Shown: positions 3,242 through 58,519, counted from the first letter of the stretch. The stretch is 64,000 nucleotides of DNA from an uncultured Candidatus Saccharibacteria bacterium (GCA_964469405.1 CAYXYP010000004.1:7717-71716), one strand, 5' to 3'. Notes: a model not told the origin generated them from the sequence alone. Program-made: numbers and translations.

Positions 3242-4549
3242 CTATTGCGTTTTCAGTTGAAGTTTTTTGTATAGATACGCACGCACTTTGTACCACCAGT
3301 CGGGGTTAATCGGTTTAAGGTGCACATCCTGTCTAACGATAGTGGTTGTTGCGTTTTCAGGCATGTGAAGCGTTACAGGATCATAGCCGTCTGCCTGCAC
3401 CGTTACTTCTTTATATTGTCTCGGTACGAATATTTGGTAGGTTCCATCCGACACAGTCGCATAATTGGTACCATTCACATTCACCCTCACTCCGCCCATG
3501 CTCTCGCCGAGAGAGTCATAGATTACTCCTTGTAGGTTGAATGCTTTGAAATAATTTTGCACGGTGAAATACGCCGCACGCGGCGTGCCGTCGTCGTTTA
3601 GAAGTGCTGTCGATCCTCCGCTGAGGGTCCAGTAATTCACGACAGGAATATGTGCGCGCTCCAGATACATTGCTTTGAAAAGAGAGTCAATATAATTTGC
3701 TTGTTCGGTTTGCGTCATCCATCCGTTCAAGTCGGGGATCGGTGCGCCAAATTCACCGAGTCCCACATTGGCTTTCAATTGCTCGGGGATGGCTTTGATA
3801 TCGCCTGCAAATTGTTCCGGCGTGTGCACGTAATGATCGATAAGAATTGTCCCGCCAAAAGCTCGAACAGTTGCTGGAGTAATAATTTGTCGAGCAATAT
3901 CGGCGTTCATAGAGGGGTATACGGCGACATGTTTGTCTTGTAGCGCAAATTCGTTGTCGGCAATTGTTTTTTCATCTCTAAGAAATGCATTGTACCCAGC
4001 TACATCACCCGTCTGGCGTGGATCACCTGGTCCGCCATTTTCGCACTCTGGACAAGGGCTAAAAACGTCTCCATTCTGAAAGAGTTCGGTATTATCATCT
4101 AAAAAGATTACTAGTAACTGCGTATGTGCAGTACGGTCAACTTTGGGATAATTAAACCACCCCTCCCATCCCGAGAAATTACCTCTGAACCACACTGAGA
4201 GGTGGTGTGATCGAGCGGATGCGACCCATAGTCTTAGGACGGGAAGAAACTCAGTGTCATAGGGGGTAGCAATCGCTACGTGCGTGGCACCCGCATCTGC
4301 GATACGGGCCATTTGCTTGTCTACCATTGGTTTGAATGCATTTGGATTATTGAGCATTTGTCTCGACATGTCGCGCGAGGATTTCATCGTGTCGATGGAC
4401 TGCACGCTAAAAAGATTTCCGGTAGTGGTTGGGGCGAAATAATATAAAGTGTTTCCGTGATAGGACAGGAGGAACATATATAATGCGAAAACGATTACCG
4501 AGGAAGATACGGCAAGTGTGATGAATGTGCGGAATAAAAATTTGCGCAT
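3242..4549 (-). CDS. membrane-anchored/secreted protein, possible glycoside-hydrolase-like TIM-barrel domain plus C-terminal beta-sandwich; last gene of the glycan operon
   Basis: It has an N-terminal TM helix (LAVSSSVIVFALYMFLL) and a 435-aa extracytoplasmic body. It sits at the 3' end of the minus-strand glycosyltransferase operon. The hydrolase assignment is by weak resemblance only. Confidence 0.4.
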   Translation of the reverse strand: MRKFLFRTFITLAVSSSVIVFALYMFLLSYHGNTLYYFAPTTTGNLFSVQSIDTMKSSRDMSRQMLNNPNAFKPMVDKQMARIADAGATHVAIATPYDTEFLPVLRLWVASARSHHLSVWFRGNFSGWEGWFNYPKVDRTAHTQLLVIFLDDNTELFQNGDVFSPCPECENGGPGDPRQTGDVAGYNAFLRDEKTIADNEFALQDKHVAVYPSMNADIARQIITPATVRAFGGTILIDHYVHTPEQFAGDIKAIPEQLKANVGLGEFGAPIPDLNGWMTQTEQANYIDSLFKAMYLERAHIPVVNYWTLSGGSTALLNDDGTPRAAYFTVQNYFKAFNLQGVIYDSLGESMGGVRVNVNGTNYATVSDGTYQIFVPRQYKEVTVQADGYDPVTLHMPENATTTIVRQDVHLKPINPDWWYKVRAYLYKKLQLKTQ

Positions 4550-4552
4550 TGT

Positions 4553-6235
4553 CTAATTCGATGCGGGTACATCATTCCTTTCGAATATAAGGACTTCATT
4601 TGAAGTATATGCTTTATTGAAATATTTATATAGTCGCGCATTGATTTTTGGGTTATCGTTTATGCTCGTCCATACGGTGTCGTTTTTCTGCATGACTATC
4701 CAGCGCGCGTATTTCTCGGGTGTGATGAGCGATTCTTCCCAGTATGGCTTGTTACCGATGTAGATAATGTCCTTCATTTTGATGGGCGAACGAATGATGC
4801 TGATTGTTCGCGCAAAATCATCTGTTAATACCATGCCGCGATCGTAGTGAGATTCAAGCCAGAGTTGTGCATCAGGTATTTTTGCTGTTGCAGATGATAG
4901 GCCTGCAATACCATCTTGCAAGGCAAGCACCGGGGTGAATCCGATGAAGAAGAAAATGCACTGCAACGCGAGCAATCCCCCGATGAGTGTACGACCAAAA
5001 GTCCCACTACGAGAAAACAGATATCCTATGAAGAGCGCAATAACGGGCACCATCATAGCGCCGTAGCGCACATTGAAAAGTGTCCATTCAAAAGTAATCG
5101 GCGTGATGCCTGGTAGGAATATGACCGACTGGCCTAGGAATAAGGTGAGGACATTAAAAAATAATGGGACGAGAAGTACCAATAATATGAGCCATCGGTA
5201 GCGCATTTTTCTACTGAATCCAAACATAAATAGCCCCACAAGTGCGATGCACGCTAGGAGTGTTCCAACGCTCTGCATACTCGTGACCGTGTAATAAAGC
5301 AGCGCTACAAGGATATTGTGGTATGCGGGCAGCTCGCCTCTAACGAGCCAACTATTTTGTTGCGAGCTGGCTGAGAATTGACTGTGAGTGAAATAGAGTG
5401 GATCGCCGAGAATGAGAGCTCCCCATGAGAGCCAGAGGAAAATGCCAAAGAACGCTAATGTTATGAACAATATTTCGCGCCCCTCGAGTCGGTGCCATAG
5501 TTCCAAGAGCGTGCGCTTGCTCTTATGTATGAAGAGAGGCACTCGCTTACTCTGCAATCGAAACCAGGTGAGATTAAATCTCAAAGGAAAATAGTAGAGA
5601 AAGAGCACTCCTGCTTCCATCATCACGAGCGCCCAGCCGTCGTAGCGTGAGAGGGAAGCGCAGAATCCAAATCCTGCCGCTGCGATAAGCATGAGCAGTT
5701 TCGTATCATCGAGGAGAAACCGTATGAAGAAATAGCTTGAGAGAATGAAGAAGACGACCAGTGGGAGCTCGGTCATCGGTGTTGATTGTAGATAGAGGAT
5801 GTTGGGATTCGACATGAACACTATCGCTGCAAAAAAGGCTGCGCTCTTATTTCTGGTGAGAAGGTGAACGAGTTTGTATATATAAAGACTCGAAATAACA
5901 AAAGCAATGCCAGATATGATTGATCCCGCGAGTCCAGTACGCCAAAGGAAATCAAAGTATACGAATGGTATGAGCAATACGTGCGGCAAGGGCAACCAAA
6001 TACCGCCAAGCTGGGCAAAGCCAGGGGTGAGACTGTCTACGACGCGCTTGGCGATGTTGAGGTGCGACTCTGCATCCCCGTAGGCAGCGATGTATCCGTG
6101 AGTAAACGAATATGCCGTCGCGAGTATCGCGACGAATACGGCGAGTATAACGACCCACCACTCGGGAGTGAGCCATATACTCGGACGAAGTATCCATTCA
6201 AAATATTTCTTTCTGATGACAAAGGTGCTATTCAT
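4553..6235 (-). CDS. GT-C superfamily membrane glycosyltransferase (ArnT/PMT-like, polyprenyl-phosphate-sugar dependent)
   Basis: The 560-aa ORF has about 11 TM helices followed by a soluble C-terminal domain. The architecture is typical of GT39/GT83-like enzymes. It overlaps the upstream gene by 8 nt. Confidence 0.6.
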   Translation of the reverse strand: MNSTFVIRKKYFEWILRPSIWLTPEWWVVILAVFVAILATAYSFTHGYIAAYGDAESHLNIAKRVVDSLTPGFAQLGGIWLPLPHVLLIPFVYFDFLWRTGLAGSIISGIAFVISSLYIYKLVHLLTRNKSAAFFAAIVFMSNPNILYLQSTPMTELPLVVFFILSSYFFIRFLLDDTKLLMLIAAAGFGFCASLSRYDGWALVMMEAGVLFLYYFPLRFNLTWFRLQSKRVPLFIHKSKRTLLELWHRLEGREILFITLAFFGIFLWLSWGALILGDPLYFTHSQFSASSQQNSWLVRGELPAYHNILVALLYYTVTSMQSVGTLLACIALVGLFMFGFSRKMRYRWLILLVLLVPLFFNVLTLFLGQSVIFLPGITPITFEWTLFNVRYGAMMVPVIALFIGYLFSRSGTFGRTLIGGLLALQCIFFFIGFTPVLALQDGIAGLSSATAKIPDAQLWLESHYDRGMVLTDDFARTISIIRSPIKMKDIIYIGNKPYWEESLITPEKYARWIVMQKNDTVWTSINDNPKINARLYKYFNKAYTSNEVLIFERNDVPASN

Positions 6236-9200
6236 GGCGACGAATGTATGACAAGAGGAGTACGATTGCTGCGATAACTGCTATCACCACATATATGATG
6301 AGGAAATATTCCATCAAGGTGAGATGGATATACATATACGTCTTGTACACAAAGCTGCCACTTATATTGTCTTGCAGGAGTGGAATATCTTTCAAATAAT
6401 TGTATGTCTTTATTGGAAGTAATATTGCCTCAGATTTTTTTGGAATAGCATTTGATGTTAATGCTCCAAGAAGTGCTATGGCTGATGAGAAGAGGAACAG
6501 TGCGAATGCGGCGATTTTTTTTGGACCAAGAAATCGCCCATAGGAAAGTGCTATACCCACAAAAAGCGCGAGCCATGGCATTGCGGGGATGAGGTATCGC
6601 GGACCATACGCTGACCCTCCCCACGGATCACCCCATGCGCAGTACAGAAATATATTCGTCGCAATGAGAGCAATTGGTACGATATATATAGTACGATAGG
6701 TCTTCTTCCTGCGGAGAACATACATGATGCCAAGGAGCGAAAAAATAAATATCGGCGAGAAAAAGAATAGACCCCGCTCGTCAGAAAATAAGAGGACATA
6801 AAAACTGTTTGGTATGGATTTCTCATGGAAAAATCCAACAGCAGTTTTATCTTTTATTGGGACAGTGCTTGTGGCTGTTGCCGAAGTTGTAGTCGAGGAC
6901 GCCTTCGCAATTGCTGGCGTACTTGTCGCAGTGACAACTTTGTATCCTTTTAACTCTCCTGCAAGATGGCTCCATCCGCCGTAGTACGTGGCATTGTGCC
7001 AGAAATGTAGGCTGGTAACGAAAGCGAATACCACAAATGTCGCAATCGCACTCCATTGTATCGATATCGCAATACCCTCACGAATTTTTTTGAACGAGAA
7101 TGTCGAGACCGCGAGATAGATCATGACCGGTAGCATAAGTACGGCATTTGGGTAGTCGACGAAGATTGCAAGCGCATACGCGAGCCACACATACGCCGCA
7201 TAGAGGAATCTATATCGAGCGTCGCTTTGTGAGAAGCGCCATGCTGCATAAAATGCGGTGACGATAAAACATGCCGTAAAAGCGTTTTGATAGAGAGTGA
7301 TGGCATAGCTCCATGAGGTTGATCCAAATGCGTAGACAAGGACGGCGAATAATGCAGCCCATCGCGGTAATGCGAAGATACGTAGCCCGATGAGATATAT
7401 GAAAACGAGCGTAACGATGCTTATGAGGGATTCTGCAGAAAAGGTAGCAACTTGTCCGAGTCCATATTGCGCACCAAAAAGATAGAAGGGAAGAGTAAAA
7501 TACGAAACACCCGGGGCGAAATAGCTGTCTAATTTTCCATCAGACGACACGCCAACATCAGGATAGGCGATATCAGCCCATGTTTTCGAGAGATTATAGA
7601 CTCCATTCTCAGCCATGTTTGCGACTTGGGTATAGCGGCCACGCTCAGGGGACAATTCAAAAGCGTTTGTTGGTTGGTCTAAATTATTCTTGAATTGATC
7701 TTCGGTTGGATTTCCTGGTGCGCCACGCAACGTCAGTCCGTACATGACGAGACCAAGCATGACGATTGCTATGATGATGGCCGTATCTTTCTTTATAGTT
7801 ATTTTGCTCAGCCAGCTACTTTTTTTGGGAGTTTCTTTCCGCGGCGAGTAATACACTTCTGGTACTAAGGGAATATTCCCATCGGGAAACATCATTTTGG
7901 TCTGACTTGTGTATTCTTTGATCATCCCGAGTTTCATCTCCGGCTCTTCCTCGAAACGAAATACTTCAGTCGCGAGAGGATTGTCATCTTTCGAACCTAG
8001 AACGTTCTTCATATTGTAAGGGAAATCCTTCCACAGAATTACATTTTCGAAATTTTTGAGGCATACATCGCGGACGATCACGTGATCAATGTGTGATTTC
8101 AGAGCGAGCGGGCAGAAAATGACGAATTGTTTCTCATTCGCAATGAGCGCCCTTAATTCTTCCCCGAGGGAACGCATAAGATCTGTGTCGTGGGATGAAA
8201 TTGCTCCGCGGGCGATGTGTAATTGGTGTATCGGATACAAGTGCAAAAATTCCGGAAGAATACGGGAGAGTAGTTGGCGGAACTTACTCGGAGACGTTAT
8301 TTTTCTCCATGAAGCATCGATATATCCAAGATGGTGTGGAGTAATCCCGATACGTGAGTATGCTTTGCGGTCCTCTTCTTTTCGATCAATAAGGAGTTGA
8401 TTAGTATCCGTATACCCACACCGGTACAAGAATCGTAGGACGGAAAGCGTGTATGGTGGCGTCGACGCAGCGGTAAAAACGCTTATAACTTCGACTTGCG
8501 TATGCTTCGACAGGTGCGTAATTAAACCACCCGCCGATAGAGCAGCATCATCCAAGTGTGGAGAAATAAAATAGCACGGGATTTTCCCCGTAATTATTTT
8601 CTGCAAAAAATGAGTGTCGCCCATACTCGCCCGTATTTTTTTAGAGCTTTCTGCCATCTCCCACAATGAAGTAAACTTGTCGGTTTTGTGCAAGCGAACA
8701 TATAACAATATCAGAATAAAATTTATGGAAAAAATAGGGTGCGTGAAAAATTCTTTTACCATTTCCCTGAGTATGAGTCCGGGTGGAATAGCATATGCTT
8801 TTCTGGCCTCATCGCCAAATATATCAATCACAGCCTCTTTGCCTGCAGCAAAACGAGAACTCTGTTTTATATGGTCGCGGAGATTTGTTGGGCAACGAAA
8901 TATCGCTCGAGGATATTTTACGGAAACAAAATGCATTTTGTTTCCCATACAAAACATATACGACATAGCATCATACGGAGTATTGTCTGGGTACTGAATC
9001 GTTGCATATAATTTCTTTGAGAATGCCTGAGCAGGACCGAAACAAGTGTAAAGATTGTTCCCACTTCCTATCGATAAAAATAATTTCTGTTTCAATTCAT
9101 GATTCCAGACAAGAACCTTTTCAGTAAATGTTTTTGGGTTTGAAGGAAGAAGTGCCGCGCTCGTTAGTCCGACGGAGGAGTCATTAATAATTGGGCGTAT

Positions 9201-12453: not shown

Positions 12454-15400
12454 TTATGTTCGATTTACCAAAGAAGCTTCGTGGTGGGATATAAATTCCC
12501 GACTGGAAATTGCCTCAATAAATTTTTGACTGCTCTTGCTCCACTCAAAATTCTGTGACCATACAATCGCGTATCTTGAGAGAATCTTCCGGAGTGTCCC
12601 ATCAACGAGCACTAGAATTATCTTTTCTGCGAGAGCTCCAGTATCACCATACGGGACCAGGAGTCCCGTCTCGCCATCGCGTACAGAATCGCGAAGGCCG
12701 GAGACATCTGACGCAATGACGGGCGTACCGCAGGCATTCGCTTCAATCGTAGTTATTCCCCAGCCCTCAATCATAGATGGAGTGACAAAAACCCAGGATG
12801 TTCGCAAAATATCACGCTTCTCTTCCTCGGATACCTTTCCACGAAAAGAAACTGAATTTCCGAGGTCGAGTTTCTGCGTCAATCTCTTCAAATTATTTTC
12901 TTCCTCACCATCCCCAGCAATAATAAGCTCTGCATCGGGAACACGAGCCAGAACTTCTTTGAATGCCTCGATGAGCACATGGACAGACTTGTGTTCTTTC
13001 AGTCTTCCAACATAGGACACTGTTGGCACGAATGCTTTCTTTCCAGGAGTTAGGAAATTTGTATCAATGCCCGGATTTACCACCTGAATATCTTTGGTCG
13101 TTATGTTGAGCGTCTCCATAGCCTGTTTTGAAGAATCTGACACCGTAATGAAGTTGCAGTTGCGATACACAAGCGGCATAAAATCTCTTTCGAGGAAGCA
13201 AGCAAAACTGGAAAGTGGCCACACGAGCGATTTGCGGAATACGTCTTGATGAATGTGGTGTACCAGGCAATACACGGGTTCTGTAGCATACAGCGGAGTA
13301 AAGAAGGGGATACCATTTTCACTATCTACGATAACGTCGAATGTCCCTCTGAAATGAAATAGATAATAGAGCGAGGCGATGACATAGGTCGCATAGAATC
13401 CACCACGGCGTATGATGCGGACACCATCAGTCTCTCCGTTTGGGGGTAAATGACCGTCATTACTTGTGAACAGGGTCACGGAGTGACCATCCTTTACCCA
13501 CCGTGATGCAAGAGCTTGCACGTATGTCTCGGCGCCGCCGGCAAACACACTTTTGGTATCGCGCCAATTGAAGACAAGAATATTTTTTTTGCCCGGAATA
13601 TGAGGGCGTGCGGGAGGCAATGGTTTATAGATAATAAGGATGTCATAGAGGTTACGATAGGCGTAGAGAAGCTGGTTGTAGAAAATATGTGAAGCCGCAA
13701 TAATTAGGAAATATATGATATTAAACGCTACTGCCGTCTGCACAAATACCGCTACGGAAGAATGGTAGAACACCATACTTGTAAGCATGGAGAGAGATAA
13801 CACTAAAGATATGGCGGGGAAAAAATATCGTTCCCGCGCAAGCTGGTAGAGAACGACGGTTGTTGCAAGCGTGAATAATGTCATGGCGATAGAGTAGGGA
13901 ATGAGATACGGGACAATCATCAGCGCCGATGCGCCAAGAAGAAGCGGTGCAAGAAACCACCCGAACAAAGAGAGGCCGAGCCCTGCCGAAATGCTGAGGA
14001 ATGCCGTACCGACAAAAATCTTCCCAAATTCTTTCTCCGGATCTCTGCCTTTTCCCATCGCACGACTCACCATTGACACGATAAATACATTGAGAAGAGA
14101 ACCGAAAAAATAAATCATTTTCCCGATGGTGGAGAGGAGAGCATAGACGCCGGCGTCATAGGGACTTAAATAATGTTTCGCCAGAATTACGTCGACGCTC
14201 AGAACCATCGCAATCGAAAATCCCTTCATGAGTGATGCTGCATAAAAATCAAGCGAAAATTTCGTTTCCGTCTGGGCCGTTCTTTGGGCAGCTGGAATTT
14301 TTCGGTACACGAGGGCGGCGCAAGCGGTTGAACCAGCCCAACCAAGAAAGATAGAAATAGGTATGGCAAGTGAAGAGAATTCGTATGCACTCATGGAGAC
14401 GAGAATCATGGCTGCGGCGAGTCTCGAACTGGATTCAAAAAGGGCTAGAAACGCAAGCATGCCGAAGCTCCACATGCCTTGCAAGTACCCGGCGTTATAC
14501 GCATTAAGCGATCCGAAGAAAATCGCTGGAGCGAAGGCTGCTATTACCACGTATCCTGACATGTGGAAGAAATCGGAGATAAACGGGACGGAAGCAAACC
14601 ACACGATGCTCCCAATCATGCTCGGAATAAAAATGTGTAGCCATGTGTGACGGAAAAAGAGACTTCCTTTTCCGGGAGCGATTCCTTCAAGATACGAAAC
14701 GGTGTGGTTGAGTGTGGTGCCGACACCGTTAACAAAAAGATTGAGCAGATACACAAACGTGCTTACGAGCGTGATAGTGCCGAAGTCTTCGAAATTAAGA
14801 TGTCTGCCGAGATACGCATTGAATGCAAAGTTGATGATGTTTGCGACTACCGAAGACATCACCAGGAGTCCTGCGCTTGAAGTGATGAATTTTCGTGTCT
14901 TTACGAACCATGTTTCTTTTTCGGTATTGTCACTCAGAATATGGATCAGCTCTGGTTCGTTGTCGGGTACAGCATTTGCCGCCATATCGATGGATGCCGG
15001 TAACGCGGGATTCTTTACGGGTATGAGTGTCAAGACGGTCCGTGGAGGCTGTTTCGCCATGACGGCTTTCATATCGAAAGCGATTTGCGGTACTGGGACG
15101 CGCATCGTCCATGGTATTTGCGGGATAATTTTCACCGGGGCGAGGTGAAGCCCATGAACTGTCTTCGCCCAGTAGTGTGGCTTCACAATTATTTCGTACA
15201 GCGCTTGCCATGCGGCGAAACTCATACCGAGCCAATAGAACGGGATGAGGAAAACGTATTTGATGAGTCCGTCGTATTCGCGCTTCACACAACCGATCAT
15301 GTAGTAGTAGAGATAGAGGAAGTTTCCAAATACAAGCGAAAAGACTCCGATATAGAGTATCGGTCCCGGGAAGAAGGCCTCTATAAAGAGGCCGATCTTT

Positions 15401-16662
15401 GCGCGGAAAAGAAAGTAACAAATCGTCGTCACCCACATGATGGGATTGATGAAAAGCGAAAGTATCTTTCCGCCAACGATGAGCTGGAAAAGAAAAAAAT
15501 CTTTTCCTTTCCCCGCTGTGAAATACTCCTGCGGATTACGCATGTGCACGAAATAGGTCTGGATGTAGCCTTTGATCCACCTGCTGCGCTGGTTGTACCA
15601 ATTCAGGACGTCCGAGTTGGCCTCCTCGTGTGTGGTCGAATCGACGATTGCCGTTTTGTAACCGCGCTTGGCGAGGCGCATACCGAGGTCACAATCCTCG
15701 GTGACGTTAAACGCATCCCAGCCCCCGAGCTCACGGAGCGTGTCTCTGCGGAAATGGTTGGAAGTTCCGCCAAGCGGAATAGGCGCCCCGATTGATTGAA
15801 AGCCGGGGAGAACCAAGTCGAACCAGAGTGAATATTCCGCGCTAAAGAGTCTCGTGAGAATGTTCTGTTGCGGATTATAGAAATTGAGTTTGGCTTGGAT
15901 GCAGGCCACGCTCGCATCTACTTTTTTGAATGCGAGAACCGCCTTCTTAAGTTGGTCGACTTCGGGGACATCCTCGGCGTCGTATATAACGACATACTCG
16001 CCGCTCACATAATTAAGGCCGTAGTTCATCGCCTTCGGCTTGGTCTTCGGCTTTGAGTGCGGCACGACCACGATGTGGAAGTGCTCGGGCAGGGAGGACG
16101 TGCTTATTTTCTGTATGGTTTCCGTATCGTTCTCCTCGAGAAGAAAAAGGACCTGAAGTTTCTCGTGCGGGTAATCAAGTTTCTGCATCGCTTCGACGAA
16201 CTGAGGTACCACCTGCCATTCTTTATAGAGCGGACAGAAGATCGTGTAGGTCGGGCAGTTCTCGTCGCGGAGTCCCGCTATCTCTGATGCGCTGATGCGT
16301 ATTTCGGGGAGCGCTTTGTAGCTTTGGAAAATAATGAACGCACTAAATAGAAGATCGAAAAAATAGAGCACGGTCATCACGCCGAACAGCGCGATGGCGG
16401 TCATCTGCCAATTGAGAACAAATGCAAATGCAAGGAGTCCGATAGCTGTTCCTAAAAATATTTTCTGATGTCTAAGTAAATTGAAAAACGCTGATTCTGT
16501 CACATGCAAATCTGCATGATGAATGAATTCGGCACCCTTGTAATGGAAGCCCGTCTGCATCGTGTTAGACATAATGGGCGACATGTGTGGATCATGCTCC
16601 GGCCCGAAGATGAAACCACGCACTTTCCGGGACAGGTTCGTGTACGCATCAACGTATCTCAT
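12454..16662 (-). CDS. 1402-aa tri-module protein: processive GT2 synthase (cellulose/chitin/PNAG-synthase-like, QxxRW) + about 12-TM Wzx/MOP-flippase-like module + C-terminal GT4 glycosyltransferase
   Basis: The N-terminal domain has DAEDVPE, TEDCDLGMRL and QRSRWIKG (D, D, D, QxxRW) flanked by TM helices. The central ~450 aa is highly hydrophobic and polysaccharide-biosynthesis/flippase-like. The C-terminus reads EGWGITTIEANACGTPVIASDVSGLRDSVRDGETGLLV, a GT4 signature. Confidence 0.75.
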   Translation of the reverse strand: MRYVDAYTNLSRKVRGFIFGPEHDPHMSPIMSNTMQTGFHYKGAEFIHHADLHVTESAFFNLLRHQKIFLGTAIGLLAFAFVLNWQMTAIALFGVMTVLYFFDLLFSAFIIFQSYKALPEIRISASEIAGLRDENCPTYTIFCPLYKEWQVVPQFVEAMQKLDYPHEKLQVLFLLEENDTETIQKISTSSLPEHFHIVVVPHSKPKTKPKAMNYGLNYVSGEYVVIYDAEDVPEVDQLKKAVLAFKKVDASVACIQAKLNFYNPQQNILTRLFSAEYSLWFDLVLPGFQSIGAPIPLGGTSNHFRRDTLRELGGWDAFNVTEDCDLGMRLAKRGYKTAIVDSTTHEEANSDVLNWYNQRSRWIKGYIQTYFVHMRNPQEYFTAGKGKDFFLFQLIVGGKILSLFINPIMWVTTICYFLFRAKIGLFIEAFFPGPILYIGVFSLVFGNFLYLYYYMIGCVKREYDGLIKYVFLIPFYWLGMSFAAWQALYEIIVKPHYWAKTVHGLHLAPVKIIPQIPWTMRVPVPQIAFDMKAVMAKQPPRTVLTLIPVKNPALPASIDMAANAVPDNEPELIHILSDNTEKETWFVKTRKFITSSAGLLVMSSVVANIINFAFNAYLGRHLNFEDFGTITLVSTFVYLLNLFVNGVGTTLNHTVSYLEGIAPGKGSLFFRHTWLHIFIPSMIGSIVWFASVPFISDFFHMSGYVVIAAFAPAIFFGSLNAYNAGYLQGMWSFGMLAFLALFESSSRLAAAMILVSMSAYEFSSLAIPISIFLGWAGSTACAALVYRKIPAAQRTAQTETKFSLDFYAASLMKGFSIAMVLSVDVILAKHYLSPYDAGVYALLSTIGKMIYFFGSLLNVFIVSMVSRAMGKGRDPEKEFGKIFVGTAFLSISAGLGLSLFGWFLAPLLLGASALMIVPYLIPYSIAMTLFTLATTVVLYQLARERYFFPAISLVLSLSMLTSMVFYHSSVAVFVQTAVAFNIIYFLIIAASHIFYNQLLYAYRNLYDILIIYKPLPPARPHIPGKKNILVFNWRDTKSVFAGGAETYVQALASRWVKDGHSVTLFTSNDGHLPPNGETDGVRIIRRGGFYATYVIASLYYLFHFRGTFDVIVDSENGIPFFTPLYATEPVYCLVHHIHQDVFRKSLVWPLSSFACFLERDFMPLVYRNCNFITVSDSSKQAMETLNITTKDIQVVNPGIDTNFLTPGKKAFVPTVSYVGRLKEHKSVHVLIEAFKEVLARVPDAELIIAGDGEEENNLKRLTQKLDLGNSVSFRGKVSEEEKRDILRTSWVFVTPSMIEGWGITTIEANACGTPVIASDVSGLRDSVRDGETGLLVPYGDTGALAEKIILVLVDGTLRKILSRYAIVWSQNFEWSKSSQKFIEAISSREFISHHEASLVNRT

Positions 16663-22555: not shown

Positions 22556-23521
22556 ATGATTCCCGCATTCCCTGAATTTAAAAAGATTAGTACCGATGAT
22601 AGGGAAGCAGTCGAGTCCTATACACGTCGATACCAACCCTATTCAGATTTTAACTTCACAAATTTGTGGGCCTGGGATACAAGTGGAGAACGCATGATTT
22701 CAGAATTAAAAGGGAACTTCGTCGTGCGCTTCACTGACTATAAGACTTGTGAACATCTGCTCTCTTTCCTAGGAAGTAATGAATCTGAAAGTACGGCGCG
22801 TCAACTCCTACATTTTGCTGAAGCGTCGGGAGTGTCTCCAATACTTCGCTTTATCACAGAAGAATCAATGCAGAATTTACAAAACTCCAATCTGTATGTA
22901 GAGGAAGATCAAGATAATTTTGATTATATATTCTCTGTTTCAGAGTTGGTTGCCTTGCAAGGTTCAAAATTTAAAGGGAAAAGACATCTTGCGGAGGGAT
23001 TCTTACGTGAGTATCCAGACGTACTTTTTGAATCAAGAGAGCTTAGCGATGTATTTGTACAAGAGCAAATCATCTCGGTACTTCGTCGGTGGGAGGACAA
23101 GAAGAAATTAGATAACAAAACGTATGACCTGGGACATGAGAAGAAAGCGCTTAGCCGCTTATTAGAAACCGCTAACAAGCACAAACTCATTTTGTCGTGC
23201 ATCTTTTTGCATGATGCCATGATTGGTTTTAGTATTGATGAGATAGTGCCACACCAATACGCAATATCACATTTTTTCAAAGCGGATAATTCCTTCAAGG
23301 GCATATCTGAATTCCTCAATGAAAAAGTGGCGCAGTATCTGGTAGTGCATGATGTTGTGTTATGGAACTGGCAGCAAGACCTAGGCATTGAAGATTTAAG
23401 GAGATCAAAAATGAGTTATCGCCCTGTTAATTTTCTTAAAAAATATCGAGTTTCTTTTGGTCCGCAGAAAATAAAGCATGGGGAAGAAAAGAACGCTATA
23501 GAACATACTTCAGTTGTATGA
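22556..23521 (+). CDS. hypothetical protein, possible dupli-GNAT fold (MprF C-terminal / DUF2156-like aminoacyl-lipid synthase type)
   Basis: The 321-aa soluble protein has an N-terminal ...YSDFNFTNLWAWD... pattern resembling the DUF2156 family. This assignment is tentative. The gene overlaps the downstream transporter gene by 4 nt. Confidence 0.4.
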   Translation: MIPAFPEFKKISTDDREAVESYTRRYQPYSDFNFTNLWAWDTSGERMISELKGNFVVRFTDYKTCEHLLSFLGSNESESTARQLLHFAEASGVSPILRFITEESMQNLQNSNLYVEEDQDNFDYIFSVSELVALQGSKFKGKRHLAEGFLREYPDVLFESRELSDVFVQEQIISVLRRWEDKKKLDNKTYDLGHEKKALSRLLETANKHKLILSCIFLHDAMIGFSIDEIVPHQYAISHFFKADNSFKGISEFLNEKVAQYLVVHDVVLWNWQQDLGIEDLRRSKMSYRPVNFLKKYRVSFGPQKIKHGEEKNAIEHTSVV

Positions 23522-37625: not shown

Positions 37626-37800
37626 TCAGTGATGCAGTAATTTCATCTGAACGGGATTGGATTGTCTGAATGGGATGTGTTTGGTAGTGTGTCAATACCG
37701 AGTCGGGCGAATCGCCGTAGTAAGCGTTCCTTGCACGCTTTCCCTCGGCTCGCTCGGAGTACATACGTATACGAAGACGTACACATATGTCTCCTCACTC

Positions 37801-37871: not shown

Positions 37872-38097
37872 CACACGACATTTTGGGAAAATTTTGGTAG
37901 GATGGGAAAACGAGCGCTTGCTGAGATAGTCAGGCTTACAGTAGTAAGCCTGAGACAGGCTTCTCACGCGGCGCTCGGAGAAAATACAAGCTCGCTTGTA
38001 TTTTACTCCTCGCTTGCGGGAGCAAGCTTAAGAGAGCATGCTCCCGGCGCGTTCGCTCACATAAGAAAATCTGATACTTTTCTTAGTTTCCTCACTT

Positions 38098-38171
38098 GCG
38101 GGAGTAGCTCAACTGGTTAGAGCGCCGCCCTGTCACGGCGGAGGTTGCGGGTTCAAGTCCCGTCTCTCGCG
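38098..38171 (+). tRNA. tRNA-Asp (anticodon GTC)
   Basis: The cloverleaf is acceptor GCGGGAG/CTCTCGC, anticodon stem-loop CCGCC-CTGTCAC-GGCGG, and T arm GCGGG-TTCAAGT-CCCGT. Confidence 0.85.
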
Positions 38172-38215
38172 CAGAATAGAAAAGCCGGCGAAAGCCGGCC
38201 TTTTCTTTATTCTGC
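38171..38215 (+). terminator. composite intrinsic terminator after tRNA-Asp
   Basis: An inner stem gccggc-gaaa-gccggc is followed by cttttctt. An outer stem pairs gcagaata with tattctgc. Confidence 0.65.
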
Positions 38216-38367
38216 TGACGAGAGACGGGACTTGAACAGCTCGGCTATGTTTTGCTAGCGAGCAAAACCGCCGAGCCAGGGCCGAGCGGAGTGAGGAGCG
38301 TCGGCGACGAATGAGCGCTTGGCCAAGCCCGTCTCTCGTTCAAAAATGCATAACTAAAATATAAAAA

Positions 38368-39366: not shown

Positions 39367-40086
39367 TTAGTGTGAGTGTAAACCGTAGCCTAATTGTGAC
39401 GCATGCGCAGAATGGTTCCGATGGATAAGTTCGTCGTTACGAATGAGCTCAAACAGCTCGTATTCATTTCGAACATTTCTTCCATAGAATGCAAGGAAGT
39501 CGGAGGTGACGGGAGTCTGTTTCAGGTGCTCGCCTTCGTTCTCAAGAAATTGTGAGTATTGCTCATACGCATGCGACTCAAAGAGGTAATTGAGGTCGAG
39601 TGCCGCTCGTCGGGAAACGAGGAAGAGGATATATACCGTCCAGAAATAGAAGAATGAGAAGAGAAACGGGATGAACGTATGACGAATGAAGCTTTGGCAG
39701 CGGAGGCGTTGCACAATCTGCGAAAGGACGACGACGTGCATCGTTTCATTGTCCTGAGCCATTCGACTGAACGCATTTAGCTTTGTAAGCTCGATGGCCC
39801 GGTGCTCATTCGAATAGAGCGCAGTTAGGATGGTGTACGCCGCGATTTCCCATGATTGGTAGGGGATTCGGGCGATAACCTCTATCGCTTTGAACTTAGC
39901 ATAGGACGGTGTGCGACCATAGATAAAAGTGCCTGAATGTACAAGAAGCGATCCGAGTAGTCGTGATATGAGCAACGGACGGTAGTGGTCAAAGGGCGCC
40001 GCATATTCAGCCCGGAGAGCAGAATCATTAAGCGACCGAGCAAGTTCTTCACTGATTGTAAATTCGTCGTTCATTTTTCCGAGCAT
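39367..40086 (-). CDS. di-iron carboxylate protein of alternative-oxidase (AOX/PTOX) type
   Basis: IEVIARIPY, NEHRAIE, LFESHAYEQY and IRNDELIHRNHS parallel the four AOX iron-binding helices (LETVA, NERMHL, LEEEAIHSY, RADEAHHRDVNH). There is a central hydrophobic membrane-dipping segment. Confidence 0.5.
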   Translation of the reverse strand: MLGKMNDEFTISEELARSLNDSALRAEYAAPFDHYRPLLISRLLGSLLVHSGTFIYGRTPSYAKFKAIEVIARIPYQSWEIAAYTILTALYSNEHRAIELTKLNAFSRMAQDNETMHVVVLSQIVQRLRCQSFIRHTFIPFLFSFFYFWTVYILFLVSRRAALDLNYLFESHAYEQYSQFLENEGEHLKQTPVTSDFLAFYGRNVRNEYELFELIRNDELIHRNHSAHASQLGYGLHSH

Positions 40087-58019: not shown

Positions 58020-58186
58020 AGCATCGAAAGAACAAGTTACGCGGGTTGCGGACTCTATATTTCGGCTGCCAGACTTGGATTCGCCTCTCGCCGTGCTCGG
58101 CTCGAAACCTACGACGTCTCTTCGACGCCTGCGGCCCGCGGTTCGAATCCAAGTCTGTGTGCGCAAAAACTGCTACGCACTTTTTG

Positions 58187-58257
58187 CTGCCAGACTTGGA
58201 TTCGAACCAAGATACTCAGATTCAGAGTCTGAGGTCCTACCATTAGACGATCTGGCA
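58187..58257 (-). tRNA. tRNA-Gln (anticodon CTG)
   Basis: The minus-strand sequence is TGCCAGA-TC-GTCT-AATGGTA-GGAC-C-TCAGA-CTCTGAA-TCTGA-GTAT-CTTGG-TTCGAAT-CCAAG-TCTGGCA-G. All stems are perfect. Confidence 0.8.
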
Positions 58258-58519
58258 TAACTGTACCTTATTGCCAGACGTTAATGGGAGGACGTTGTCC
58301 TACTGCAAGCGAAGCAAGGCAAAGAAGGAATGTCTGCATTCATTCTTTCCGAGCGAGCGTAGCAGAAAGCCCGAAGGGCTTACCATTAGACGATCTGGCA
58401 ATAGTACGACACAGGAGTGTCGTACTATCTAGACGATACGTTATCAAGCAGGTTTGTTCAATACATAGAATTGCGGCAGATGTTTAGTAGAAAAAAGGTT
58501 GAGCATGTAGGATTGTCTG

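Follow-up and report, generated by a model that had tools for sequence, protein, structure and literature searches.

Partial copies of the tRNA-Asp gene around a conserved folded core in a stretch of Patescibacteria DNA

The tRNA-Asp gene of the DNA stretch analysed here (64 kb, hereafter the window) is flanked on both sides by partial copies of itself, which raises the question of how such copies come about and what they enclose. tRNA and tmRNA genes are classic landing sites for mobile DNA, and the reason for this is still debated. The RNA biology of Patescibacteria is, to our knowledge, almost unknown. A preliminary description of the locus saw in its direct repeats the classic scar of integrase-mediated insertion and named pairing of the inverted copy with the tRNA trailer as another option. 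The reading preferred here, which we rate about midway between right and wrong, is that 38172-38339 would belong to a family of compact modules, structured and non-coding, located 3' of tRNA and tmRNA genes in Parcubacteria/Patescibacteria, and that the module would propagate itself at the level of DNA. The partial tRNA copies are the target-derived stems of this module.

The tRNA-Asp locus and other tRNA genes of the window

The tRNA-Asp(GTC) gene is located at 38098-38171 on the + strand, where it is found by ARAGORN and matched by Rfam RF00005 at 70.2 bits; an encoded CCA is absent. The 3' end of the gene (D1, 38151-38169, + strand) is duplicated downstream in both orientations. D1 comprises G53, the T loop, the 3' strand of the T stem, and the 3' strand of the acceptor up to position 71. 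Its inverted copy (I, 38218-38237, + strand) contains an exact 19-nt reverse complement of D1 at 38219-38237, as had been described. In the 64-kb window, counting both strands, chance matches reach 10-13 nt; the repeats that flank tRNA-Asp are non-random and lie where the preliminary description had placed them. Between the gene and I is hp1 (38172-38217, + strand), a terminator hairpin of the form GCCGGC-GAAA-GCCGGC with A-rich and T-rich arms and a T-rich tail. The hp1 arms at 38171-38183 and 38203-38215 are complementary, and the terminator-like site at 38184-38199, followed by CTTTTCTTTA, puts a G+C-rich hairpin and a T-rich run straight after tRNA-Asp. The whole of 38151-38237 is a single near-perfect palindrome of 87 nt with hp1 at its centre.

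The outer direct copy (D2, CAAG-CCCGTCTCTCGT, 38324-38339, + strand) pairs with I and closes the core as stem P1. The segment first noted, CCCGTCTCTCG at 38328-38338, lies in a stem of 12 bp with I (38218-38229 with 38328-38339), and if a 1-nt deletion is permitted, D2 reaches 16 nt (38324-38339) and begins in the T loop. Taken alone, the 11-nt match is weak, because the window contains two further 11-mers of tRNA-Asp at other places. What makes it a real copy is where it lies, that it pairs with the inverted copy, and that relatives have kept it. The direct repeats at 38159-38169 and 38328-38338 are 169 bp apart and bracket inserted DNA. The unit of ~170 bp over 38172-38339 thus has the order D - hairpin - I - core - D, with a core of ~90 nt. 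I has two pairing options, either with the tRNA end, which lengthens the terminator palindrome, or with the outer D, which closes the core. The complement of the inverted copy, which had been proposed to pair with the trailer, is the tRNA 3' end itself and not the trailer alone.

The core (38235-38334, + strand) is the only full-length match in the 64-kb window to the covariance model R1, described below. Its score of 58 bits (E 6.6e-12) is low compared with the 75-99 bits of better-scoring family members. Stem P2 (38239-38245 with 38270-38276, + strand) encloses a conserved hairpin at 38249-38268 (GTTTTGCTAGCGAGCAAAAC), and stem P3 (38280-38288 with 38316-38324, + strand) has a middle that is degenerate in the window. 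Within P3, a 10-nt patch at 38289-38298 is, on the - strand, an exact copy of the tRNA-Met leader CTCCTCACTC. A minus-strand tRNA-like gene led by this motif (38289-38298) was considered and rejected, because it is the + strand that has the conserved G.U pairs and folds better, and the patch is absent from the relative L137. The fold z-score of the window core is -5.6 on the + strand, and the fold has -71.7 kcal/mol on the + strand vs -62.9 kcal/mol on the - strand. Neither a promoter-like site between tRNA-Asp and the core nor a terminator after the outer D was found in the window.

Upstream of the gene, a partial copy at 38007-38022 (+ strand) consists of the leader motif TCCTCGCTT and the acceptor 5' strand GCGGGAG, at a period of 82 bp ahead of the true tRNA start. 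This stretch, TCCTCGCTTGCGGGAG, agrees with 38089-38104, the leader and acceptor 5' strand, in 15 of its 16 bases. The echo of the tRNA 5' end previously assigned to 38010-38022 is therefore real and was only a base or so out of place. The displaced fragment CGGGAG forms a hairpin with a downstream CTCCCG (38017-38046, + strand), whose arms at 38017-38028 and 38035-38046 are 92% complementary.

The recurrence of this architecture at tRNA-Gln, also claimed before, is confirmed at 58065-58400. The tRNA-Gln(CTG) gene (58186-58257, - strand) is followed by an 18-nt inverted copy of its 3' end (I, 58140-58157, - strand), a 56-nt core designated type 4 (58084-58139, - strand) made of GCGGGCCGCA, a hairpin, and TAGGTTTCGAG, and a 19-nt direct copy of the 3' end (D2, 58065-58083, - strand) that extends beyond the discriminator. 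The 5' end of tRNA-Gln recurs as a 20-nt direct copy 143 nt upstream of the gene (58381-58400, - strand), and a degenerate inverted copy of the 5' end (~58272-58288) adjoins the gene. Across the whole window, matches of 18-20 nt to tRNA segments are confined to the flank of the tRNA concerned, with 19 nt for Asp and 20, 19, and 18 nt for Gln. Behind tRNA-Met, a hairpin at 37930-37953 consists of two copies of a 14-nt anticodon-arm segment, one inverted and one direct. Nothing comparable was present among the flanking matches of the two tRNA-Thr genes of the window.

A family of folded cores with locally derived stems

The preliminary description proposed a search for other copies of the spacer, and these are numerous. 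Metagenome contigs scanned with the shared core hairpin (TTYTGCTAGCRAGCARAAC) yielded 104 stretches, most of which have a common flanking consensus, and the R1 model was built from an alignment of 69 copies. R1 matches 122 sequences in 88 sources, mostly metagenome loci. The core is composed of two covarying hairpins, and the apex of one of them (GCUAGCAAGC) is almost invariant across many metagenomes. In the R1 alignment, 90.7% of cells are paired, vs 68% after shuffling and ~40% with slid partners, double-change cells number 746 vs 195, and compensatory changes occur in 32 of 32 pairs; these statistics come from a structure-fitted alignment, which biases them towards structure, and an unfitted MAFFT alignment has the same covariation.

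At the base of P3, two pairs are for the most part G.U, in 79 and 46 of the 112 distinct sequences. The tRNA strand is the functional one, because of these conserved G.U pairs and the better fold of the + strand. Mismatches in P1 are G.T in 8 cases and A.C in 9, and since G.T is not in excess, the closing stem gives no hint of having been selected as a helix, whether of RNA or of a single strand. Compensatory changes and strand-specific G.U pairs would be expected as much from a folded single strand of DNA as from a functional RNA.

Searches against Rfam 15 matched only tRNA and tmRNA, and the core went unmatched in the window and in 14 canonical loci (E up to 1-5). Hammerhead and other known ribozymes, box C/D, and k-turn motifs were also discarded as candidates because there is no Rfam match and the motifs are not conserved across the alignment. 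A scan of 2.9 million viral contigs contained no family member; the sole match was a non-member sequence, the same as L037. Sequence and keyword text searches found no published description of the element. The loci were recruited via the element itself, and spread is judged by the diversity of contigs and not by their names; on this measure, the family seems to be a small folded DNA or RNA module behind the tRNA and tmRNA genes of many ultra-small bacteria of the Patescibacteria, apparently undescribed.

The genomic context was broken down for 97 well-scoring R1 copies. Most of them (59/97) are found no more than 130 nt behind a tRNA of the same strand, in at least 15 anticodon classes. Ten are in tandem after another copy, 4 are at a contig end, and 24 are elsewhere. 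Three of the copies in the last group are directly 3' of tmRNA genes, and many more follow a different core type that is itself behind a tRNA. Head-to-tail arrays contain 2-4 units, and the unit is ~170 bp in essentially all of the >90 copies.

In each copy, the order on the tRNA strand is D - hairpin - I - core - D, and the stems always follow the adjacent gene. Among 117 non-redundant tRNAs from 60 loci, scored for copies of at least 9 nt, an inverted copy of the 3' end is present downstream of 54 vs 1 in the upstream control, a direct copy downstream of 51 vs 6, and both together at 39. When the stems of 52 copies are compared with the adjacent tRNA, the inverted copy has a median of 11 nt exact and the direct copy a median of 9 nt, with up to 24. 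Repeat length varies from about 5 to >35 nt. The direct copy mostly starts within the T loop and stops within ~3 nt of the tRNA end, and the outer D often ends exactly at the discriminator. In L087, where the tRNA order is as in the window (Met, Asp, element, Thr, Thr), the stems track the unusual T loop of its own tRNA-Asp (GGTCAGCACCC). The three copies are near-identical where they overlap (205 of 217 columns, in a test that trims mismatched ends), and there are 0 sites at which I and D depart jointly from the tRNA, in local alignments that likewise trim mismatched ends.

The cores do not follow the adjacent gene in this way. Cores that are 93% identical are found behind tRNA-Arg (L090) and tRNA-Leu (L070); the similarity stops on both sides in bases derived from the T loop, and outside of these each locus follows its own tRNA. 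In L006, the spacer is clearly homologous to that of the window and the transporter is 79% identical to the window's, but the element is behind tRNA-Met rather than tRNA-Asp, and its flanks match the tRNA-Met 3' end. At least three further cores have the identical layout. One is a P3-only form (L047, L060, L076, and L095), one begins with GCCCGATTGAGCA (L132, L120, and L065), and one is the type 4 core of the window's tRNA-Gln, which is also present with a covarying hairpin behind tRNA-Leu(TAA) in L093. L135 holds an orphan copy with tRNA-Gln-derived stems and no intact tRNA-Gln. A candidate cargo-bearing version in L047, with the matching tRNA 3 kb upstream, was set aside as an orphan copy among other compact copies.

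Because the stems are local and the cores common, the repeats must have arisen at the level of DNA, and we infer that D-I-D is the target triplicated, with the middle copy inverted. The outer D of L060 and L132 runs 18-25 nt into the trailer, and the same trailer is the left arm of the 'terminator' hairpin; the triplicated unit is therefore a stretch of DNA and not an RNA domain. The best-scoring copies, of type B, have a closing stem of only 4-6 bp, made of the last few tRNA bases and trailer. A terminator-like hairpin ahead of the core is seen by eye at many loci. An automatic count placed a terminator between tRNA and core in 7 of 63 cases, a figure that is unreliable because long hairpins pair the T run with a run of A.

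Relatives and history of the tRNA-Asp copy

The window CTP synthase is 88-90% identical to proteins named Candidatus Kaiserbacteria, Parcubacteria, or Minisyncoccota, and the window organism is close to Candidatus Kaiserbacteria. The same sequence is found in several metagenome contigs from Hainich groundwater, all with the same copy of the element. Further relatives were sought by exact-protein look-ups, of which the CTP synthase homologues gave useful ones; genome contigs scanned with the neighbouring transporter protein contained no relative. Synteny through the Mem_trans gene is poorly conserved.

Two relatives, L136 and L137, carry the element behind tRNA-Asp. Their CTP synthases are 93% and 92% identical to that of the window, and third codon positions are 56% and 50% identical, respectively, so neutral sites are near saturation. 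The outer junction is the same in both as in the window, including the same missing T (the 1-nt deletion), and the insertion is therefore older than the split of the three. The tRNA-Asp sequence is 100% identical between the window and both relatives. Between the window and L137, identity is 93.6% for hp1, 18 of 19 positions for I, about 82% for D2, and 55% for the core. The complementarity of I to the tRNA stays perfect, over 18 nt in L137 and over 11 + 11 nt, split by a hairpin, in L136. In L137, P2 and P3 still form with different sequence, and a normal P3 stem is found where the window has the tRNA-Met leader patch. In L136, the core is canonical and contains a 51-nt insertion, the terminator differs, and the inverted copy is split by a second hairpin. 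The upstream partial copy is also present in both, though diverging. Taken together, this comparison shows the window copy to be, as far as sequence can tell, old, partly degraded, and inherited from the ancestor that the window shares with L136 and L137.

Comparison of homologous tRNA-Asp loci, the check put forward in the preliminary description, shows the ~170-bp segment to be discrete, and L008/L009, L006, and L138 are without core or second copy at this gene. In L008/L009, the transporter gene begins 2 nt after tRNA-Asp with no element, and in L006 another gene is directly after tRNA-Asp, again with no element there. In L138, a terminator palindrome enters the tRNA-Asp end by only ~4 nt and the core is absent. 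These loci show that the tRNA does not depend on the element. Relatives with an identical tRNA-Asp retain the element, and more distant relatives are without it. The fold that is kept across saturated divergence points to selection on the fold and not to mere spread.

Origin of the module and comparison with known systems

The direct repeats of a tRNA 3' end invite comparison with integrative elements. Williams is said to have defined in 2002 the sublocation classes of integrase sites in tRNA and tmRNA genes, with an identity block from the T loop to the 3' end. As in such elements, the target here is the 3' part of the gene, the direct repeats extend from the T loop as far as the 3' end, the gene is left intact, and a displaced fragment is found outside. 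Unlike them, the module has no integrase or cargo, is ~170 bp, has one core family at many tRNA species, always includes an inverted copy, and has an interior that is conserved as a fold. Pfam scans of the window ORFs and the gene table of L002 contained no integrase in or beside the insert. No kilobase-sized cargo or remnant of one was found, and the interior is the conserved structured core.

The system with the closest order of parts is that of the CTX phage, whose folded single strand, according to what Val et al. reportedly described in 2005, is integrated via XerCD. The product of CTX-type integration is site - cargo - inverted site - ~90-nt spacer - site. This order matches D at 38151-38169, hp1, I at 38219-38237, core, and D at 38324-38339, and in both systems inverted and direct copies fold as a hairpin that imitates a double-stranded target. 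The module differs in that the target is the tRNA or tmRNA 3' end and not dif, the 'cargo' is a mere hairpin, there are no phage genes and no genes inside, and the stems vary by locus, which those of a carried attP would not.

Integron attC sites share with the module a folded single-strand form, conserved structure, strand asymmetry, inverted and direct ends, and head-to-tail arrays. The RYYYAAC and GTTRRRY boxes of attC are absent; the window ends in ...ACTTGAAC and CAAGCCCG..., and the ends differ for each tRNA. In the module, unlike attC, the loop is conserved and the stem is variable and target-derived. Neither an integron integrase nor attI was found among the scanned ORFs of the window. 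REP/BIME and REPIN elements are likewise short, palindromic, and multi-copy in gene 3' flanks, often near terminators and often in arrays, but a REP stem has a family-wide sequence, whereas the module stems are copies of the neighbouring gene. One IS200-like Y1 transposase (Y1_Tnp) is present in 1.09 Mb of loci, in L135, and has its own unrelated flanking hairpins GGAGGTTAAACCTCC. MITEs end in terminal inverted repeats common to the whole family and duplicate a fixed length of target; the module does neither. IS110 elements with a bridge RNA have an adjacent DEDD/serine recombinase and guides in internal loops; in the module there is no gene inside, and the target-matching segments are in a terminal stem. 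DUP-TRP/INV-DUP rearrangements, MMBIR, and quasi-palindrome correction leave direct-inverted-direct products with junctions at short palindromes or microhomology and keep palindrome arms identical, as is seen here. Template-switch triplications are sporadic, however, and the module recurs at many genes, always with a conserved structured core. The facts on att islands, attC, REP/RAYT, and MMBIR used in these comparisons are general knowledge. A retroelement primer-binding site was rejected because position 72, the discriminator, and CCA are missing from the copy, which corresponds to the gene rather than to the mature tRNA. TIGR-Tas arrays were also rejected, as they have 8-12-nt repeats with 9-nt spacers, unlike the module.

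The simplest route to the D-I-D triplet would be strand or template switching, whose signature the direct-inverted-direct order bears. A fold-back at the terminator hairpin would copy the tRNA end backwards. The strand could then switch at the near-palindromic T loop, which is TTCGAA-like and common to every tRNA and tmRNA, to another locus, where the core would be copied in before a switch back, and the stems would come from the local gene. Template switching would explain the local stems, the common cores, and the junctions in the T loop. Alternatively, a folded single-stranded circle similar to that of the CTX phage might be inserted with an identical product, which would leave the target-dependent stems unexplained. 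The module would persist as a self-propagating element, either selfish or domesticated, whose fold acts as a single strand on the tRNA strand.

Propagation at the DNA level draws on stems that are local while cores are common to different tRNAs, on other cores with the same layout, and on the arrays, the patchy distribution, and the D-I-D triplet. Neither an enzyme nor an intermediate was found for it, nor a filled/empty polymorphism between near-identical strains. The invariant loop and covarying stems across many environments are instead the pattern of a functional RNA, the layout survives at the orthologous tRNA-Asp despite 50% third-position identity with P2 and P3 rebuilt in L137, and the three switches that template switching requires per new copy seem rare for so common an element. 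A host-functional RNA is a reading that we hold to be possible though less probable. It would be made by terminator read-through, its closing helix would mimic the acceptor/T-stem stack of the adjacent tRNA, and RNase P, RNase Z, or the CCA-adding enzyme would then release or mark the RNA; otherwise it would modulate maturation of that tRNA. Its conserved apex would offer a binding site for a protein or a second RNA. The covariation, the G.U pairs conserved on the tRNA strand, the better fold of the + strand, the apex invariant across many metagenomes, and the fold kept at the orthologous locus across saturation all agree with such an RNA, as does an outer D that often extends to the discriminator and a tmRNA host that also has tRNA-type end-processing. 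In the in silico fold of a read-through transcript, the outer D is preferred as the alternative 3' half of the tRNA (-138.2 vs -130.2 kcal/mol), and we treat this predicted preference as a consequence of triplication and not as functional evidence. The terminator-like hairpin before the core, with no promoter-like site in between in the window, argues against read-through, as do the type B closing stems of 4-6 bp, which mimic no acceptor, and an outer D with no terminator after it. The patchiness among close relatives, the tandem arrays, and the L135 orphan also fit an RNA poorly.

Two further explanations carry much less weight. One, which we consider distinctly unlikely, is that palindromic terminators grew by quasi-palindrome mutation and that repeats and spacer are neutral debris. 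This would suit the one long near-perfect palindrome at 38151-38237, the simple state in L138, with ~4 nt of palindrome in the tRNA end and no core, the tRNA-Met hairpin built from inverted and direct anticodon-arm copies, and the reverse-complement patch of a tRNA leader within the core. It leaves unaccounted for a core that, in >100 copies from a range of environments, keeps invariant bases and shows compensatory changes, and also the second conserved core at tRNA-Gln, common to L093; by-product formation is largely refuted for the core and is possible for the inverted copy alone. The other, which we regard as very improbable, is an attL/attR scar, left when an island or prophage entered the tRNA-Asp 3' end via a tyrosine integrase and later lost nearly all of its DNA. 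Direct repeats from the T loop to the 3' end are the usual identity block of T-loop-targeting integrases, and tRNA and tmRNA genes are their usual targets. The classic integrase scar of the preliminary description does not hold up in the scanned window ORFs, which include no integrase, transposase, or reverse transcriptase; the unit is only ~170 bp in >90 copies with no kilobase cargo, and its spacer belongs to a conserved covarying family rather than being decayed island DNA. Moreover, the same core at 15 or more tRNA species would demand a separate integrase specificity for each, the 2.9 million viral contigs contain no member of the family, and an inverted copy is foreign to att scars. A more speculative pair of ideas, somewhat less probable than the read-through RNA, is that the module could be a self-templating guided insertion element, in which the copies serve as guides and the core as scaffold for a host or element protein so that it homes to any tRNA or tmRNA gene, or that it could be a 'shadow' RNA for each tRNA, with its own acceptor/T-stem helix in tRNA end metabolism.

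The module is a very small non-coding element at tRNA and tmRNA genes, with no integrase of its own, a deeply conserved fold, and stems rebuilt from the host gene. If it is moved by strand switching at the T loop, the T-loop palindrome would itself be able to turn these genes into hot spots of recombination. Should it be an RNA, it would represent a widespread unannotated RNA class in Patescibacteria. The palindromes and repeats also break assemblies at tRNA loci, and several Hainich contigs end inside the region. The repeats of the module can be mistaken for the att sites of genomic islands.

Insertions are present on the 5' side of tRNA genes as well. Direct copies of the tRNA 5' end are found upstream of 16 of the 117 tRNAs vs 1 in the control, and some of these reflect neighbouring isoacceptors. 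A GIY-YIG gene lies between the 5' fragment and the intact tRNA in L031 and L115 (Pfam E about 1e-16), LAGLIDADG or GIY-YIG genes adjoin tRNAs in L006, L045, L047, L074, and L138, and an R1-like core is found within a 5' pseudo-copy of tRNA-Ala in L117 and L089. Because these insertions add to the 3' modules, the tRNA genes of this lineage are insertion hot spots at both flanks. CPR bacteria are known for rRNA-gene insertion sequences with LAGLIDADG and GIY-YIG homing endonucleases and many group I and group II introns (PMC11270868), and the hot-spot tRNA genes parallel these insertions: the organism group is the same, genes for stable RNAs are hot for small insertions, and LAGLIDADG/GIY-YIG enzymes are involved (PMC11270868). 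The published insertions are inside rRNA genes, whereas the elements here are non-intron by Rfam, and the text of PMC11270868 makes no mention of tRNA. In the window, the upstream units are free of genes and measure 82 bp at tRNA-Asp and 143 bp at tRNA-Gln. Upstream of tRNA-Met, L002, which is otherwise identical to the window, has two extra 5' fragments.

Copies of tRNA segments around the tRNA genes

A hypothetical read-through transcript of the tRNA-Asp locus (38098-38345, + strand) has a predicted minimum-energy fold in which the 5' strands of the tRNA pair with the outer direct copy of its 3' end, and the inverted copy pairs with the true 3' end. The predicted product is a tRNA whose T loop carries an extra 177 nt. 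The predicted energy of this fold is -138.2 kcal/mol, versus -130.2 kcal/mol for the normal cloverleaf.

The same layout of direct copy, hairpin, inverted copy, core and second direct copy is present at tRNA-Gln (58065-58400). Its core, GCGGGCCGCA - hairpin - TAGGTTTCGAG, is conserved but differs from that at tRNA-Asp. A core of the tRNA-Gln type was also found behind tRNA-Leu(TAA) in L093, one of the compared loci, where the hairpin carries compensatory changes. Upstream of tRNA-Gln is a 20-nt copy of its own 5' end.

Behind tRNA-Met, a hairpin (37930-37958; TCAGGCTTAC-agta-GTAAGCCTGA) combines two copies of the gene's anticodon-arm segment TAAGCCTTAGACAG, one inverted and one direct, with 13 of 14 positions identical. 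Upstream of this gene, the window (37690-37800) differs from the Hainich groundwater contig L002 (9170-9430), although these two Hainich sequences are otherwise identical. In L002, the 5' end of tRNA-Met recurs as two additional fragments (GCCGGTGTA), both with a hairpin after them; the window has a single degenerate 5' fragment (CGCCGTAGTA). Several contigs of the same Hainich population terminate within the region from tRNA-Met to tRNA-Asp.

A motif 5' of the tRNA genes

The motif TCCTCRCTY has 6 matches in the window, versus 2.1 expected. On the + strand, it lies immediately 5' of tRNA-Met (37792-37800), of the tRNA-Asp 5' fragment (38007-38015) and of tRNA-Asp itself (38089-38097); a further match is on the - strand (38289-38297). 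tRNA-Thr(GGT) has CCTCAGT in its place. In most cases a hairpin of 30-40 nt and CTCGYTCGGAG lie ahead of the motif, which may be a leader or promoter module of tRNA genes.

Unusual settings of the R1 core

R1, the structured core family found behind tRNA-Asp, also occurs elsewhere in the compared loci. In L117 (~5660-5790) and L089, the real tRNA-Ala(TGC) has a 5' pseudo-copy immediately upstream, and an R1-like core that lacks the usual apex hairpin separates the D arm of this pseudo-copy from its anticodon arm. The copy in L135, the closest relative (15352-15448, - strand), takes its stems from the 3' end of tRNA-Gln (TCCAAGTCTGGCAGC) and has only a degenerate tRNA remnant upstream; it is an orphan element. 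Two copies have no upstream tRNA (L046, ~3600-3650, and L052, ~3560-3610, both - strand). Both are preceded by GGTTCCAACTTCAT(C/A)CCATA(A/T)GG. No Rfam family matches this shared sequence, in which a further conserved RNA or gene may end.

Protein-coding genes at the tRNA loci and elsewhere

In related loci, small GIY-YIG genes and LAGLIDADG genes directly adjoin tRNA genes on the same strand (L031 4006-4257, L115 2981-3301 and L045 10741-11082; L006 2909-3589, L138 2724-3410, L047 216-929 and L074 14-784). In L031 and L115, the gene has a displaced tRNA 5' fragment on one side and the intact tRNA on the other. The LAGLIDADG reading frame of L006 runs into tRNA-Asp and stops within it.

L135 also encodes a 232-aa IS200-like Y1 transposase 3' of CTP synthase (6263-7030), with the hairpin GGAGGTTAAACCTCC on either side. 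This gene is missing at the corresponding window position and is unrelated to the tRNA-flank elements.

Beside the window's tRNA cluster is an alternative-oxidase-like gene (AOX; 39367-40086, - strand; weak match, E 1e-7) that keeps this position in relatives. This Kaiserbacteria-like genome also has a gene encoding an aminoacyl-phosphatidylglycerol synthase C-terminal domain (LPG_synthase_C; 22556-23521, + strand).
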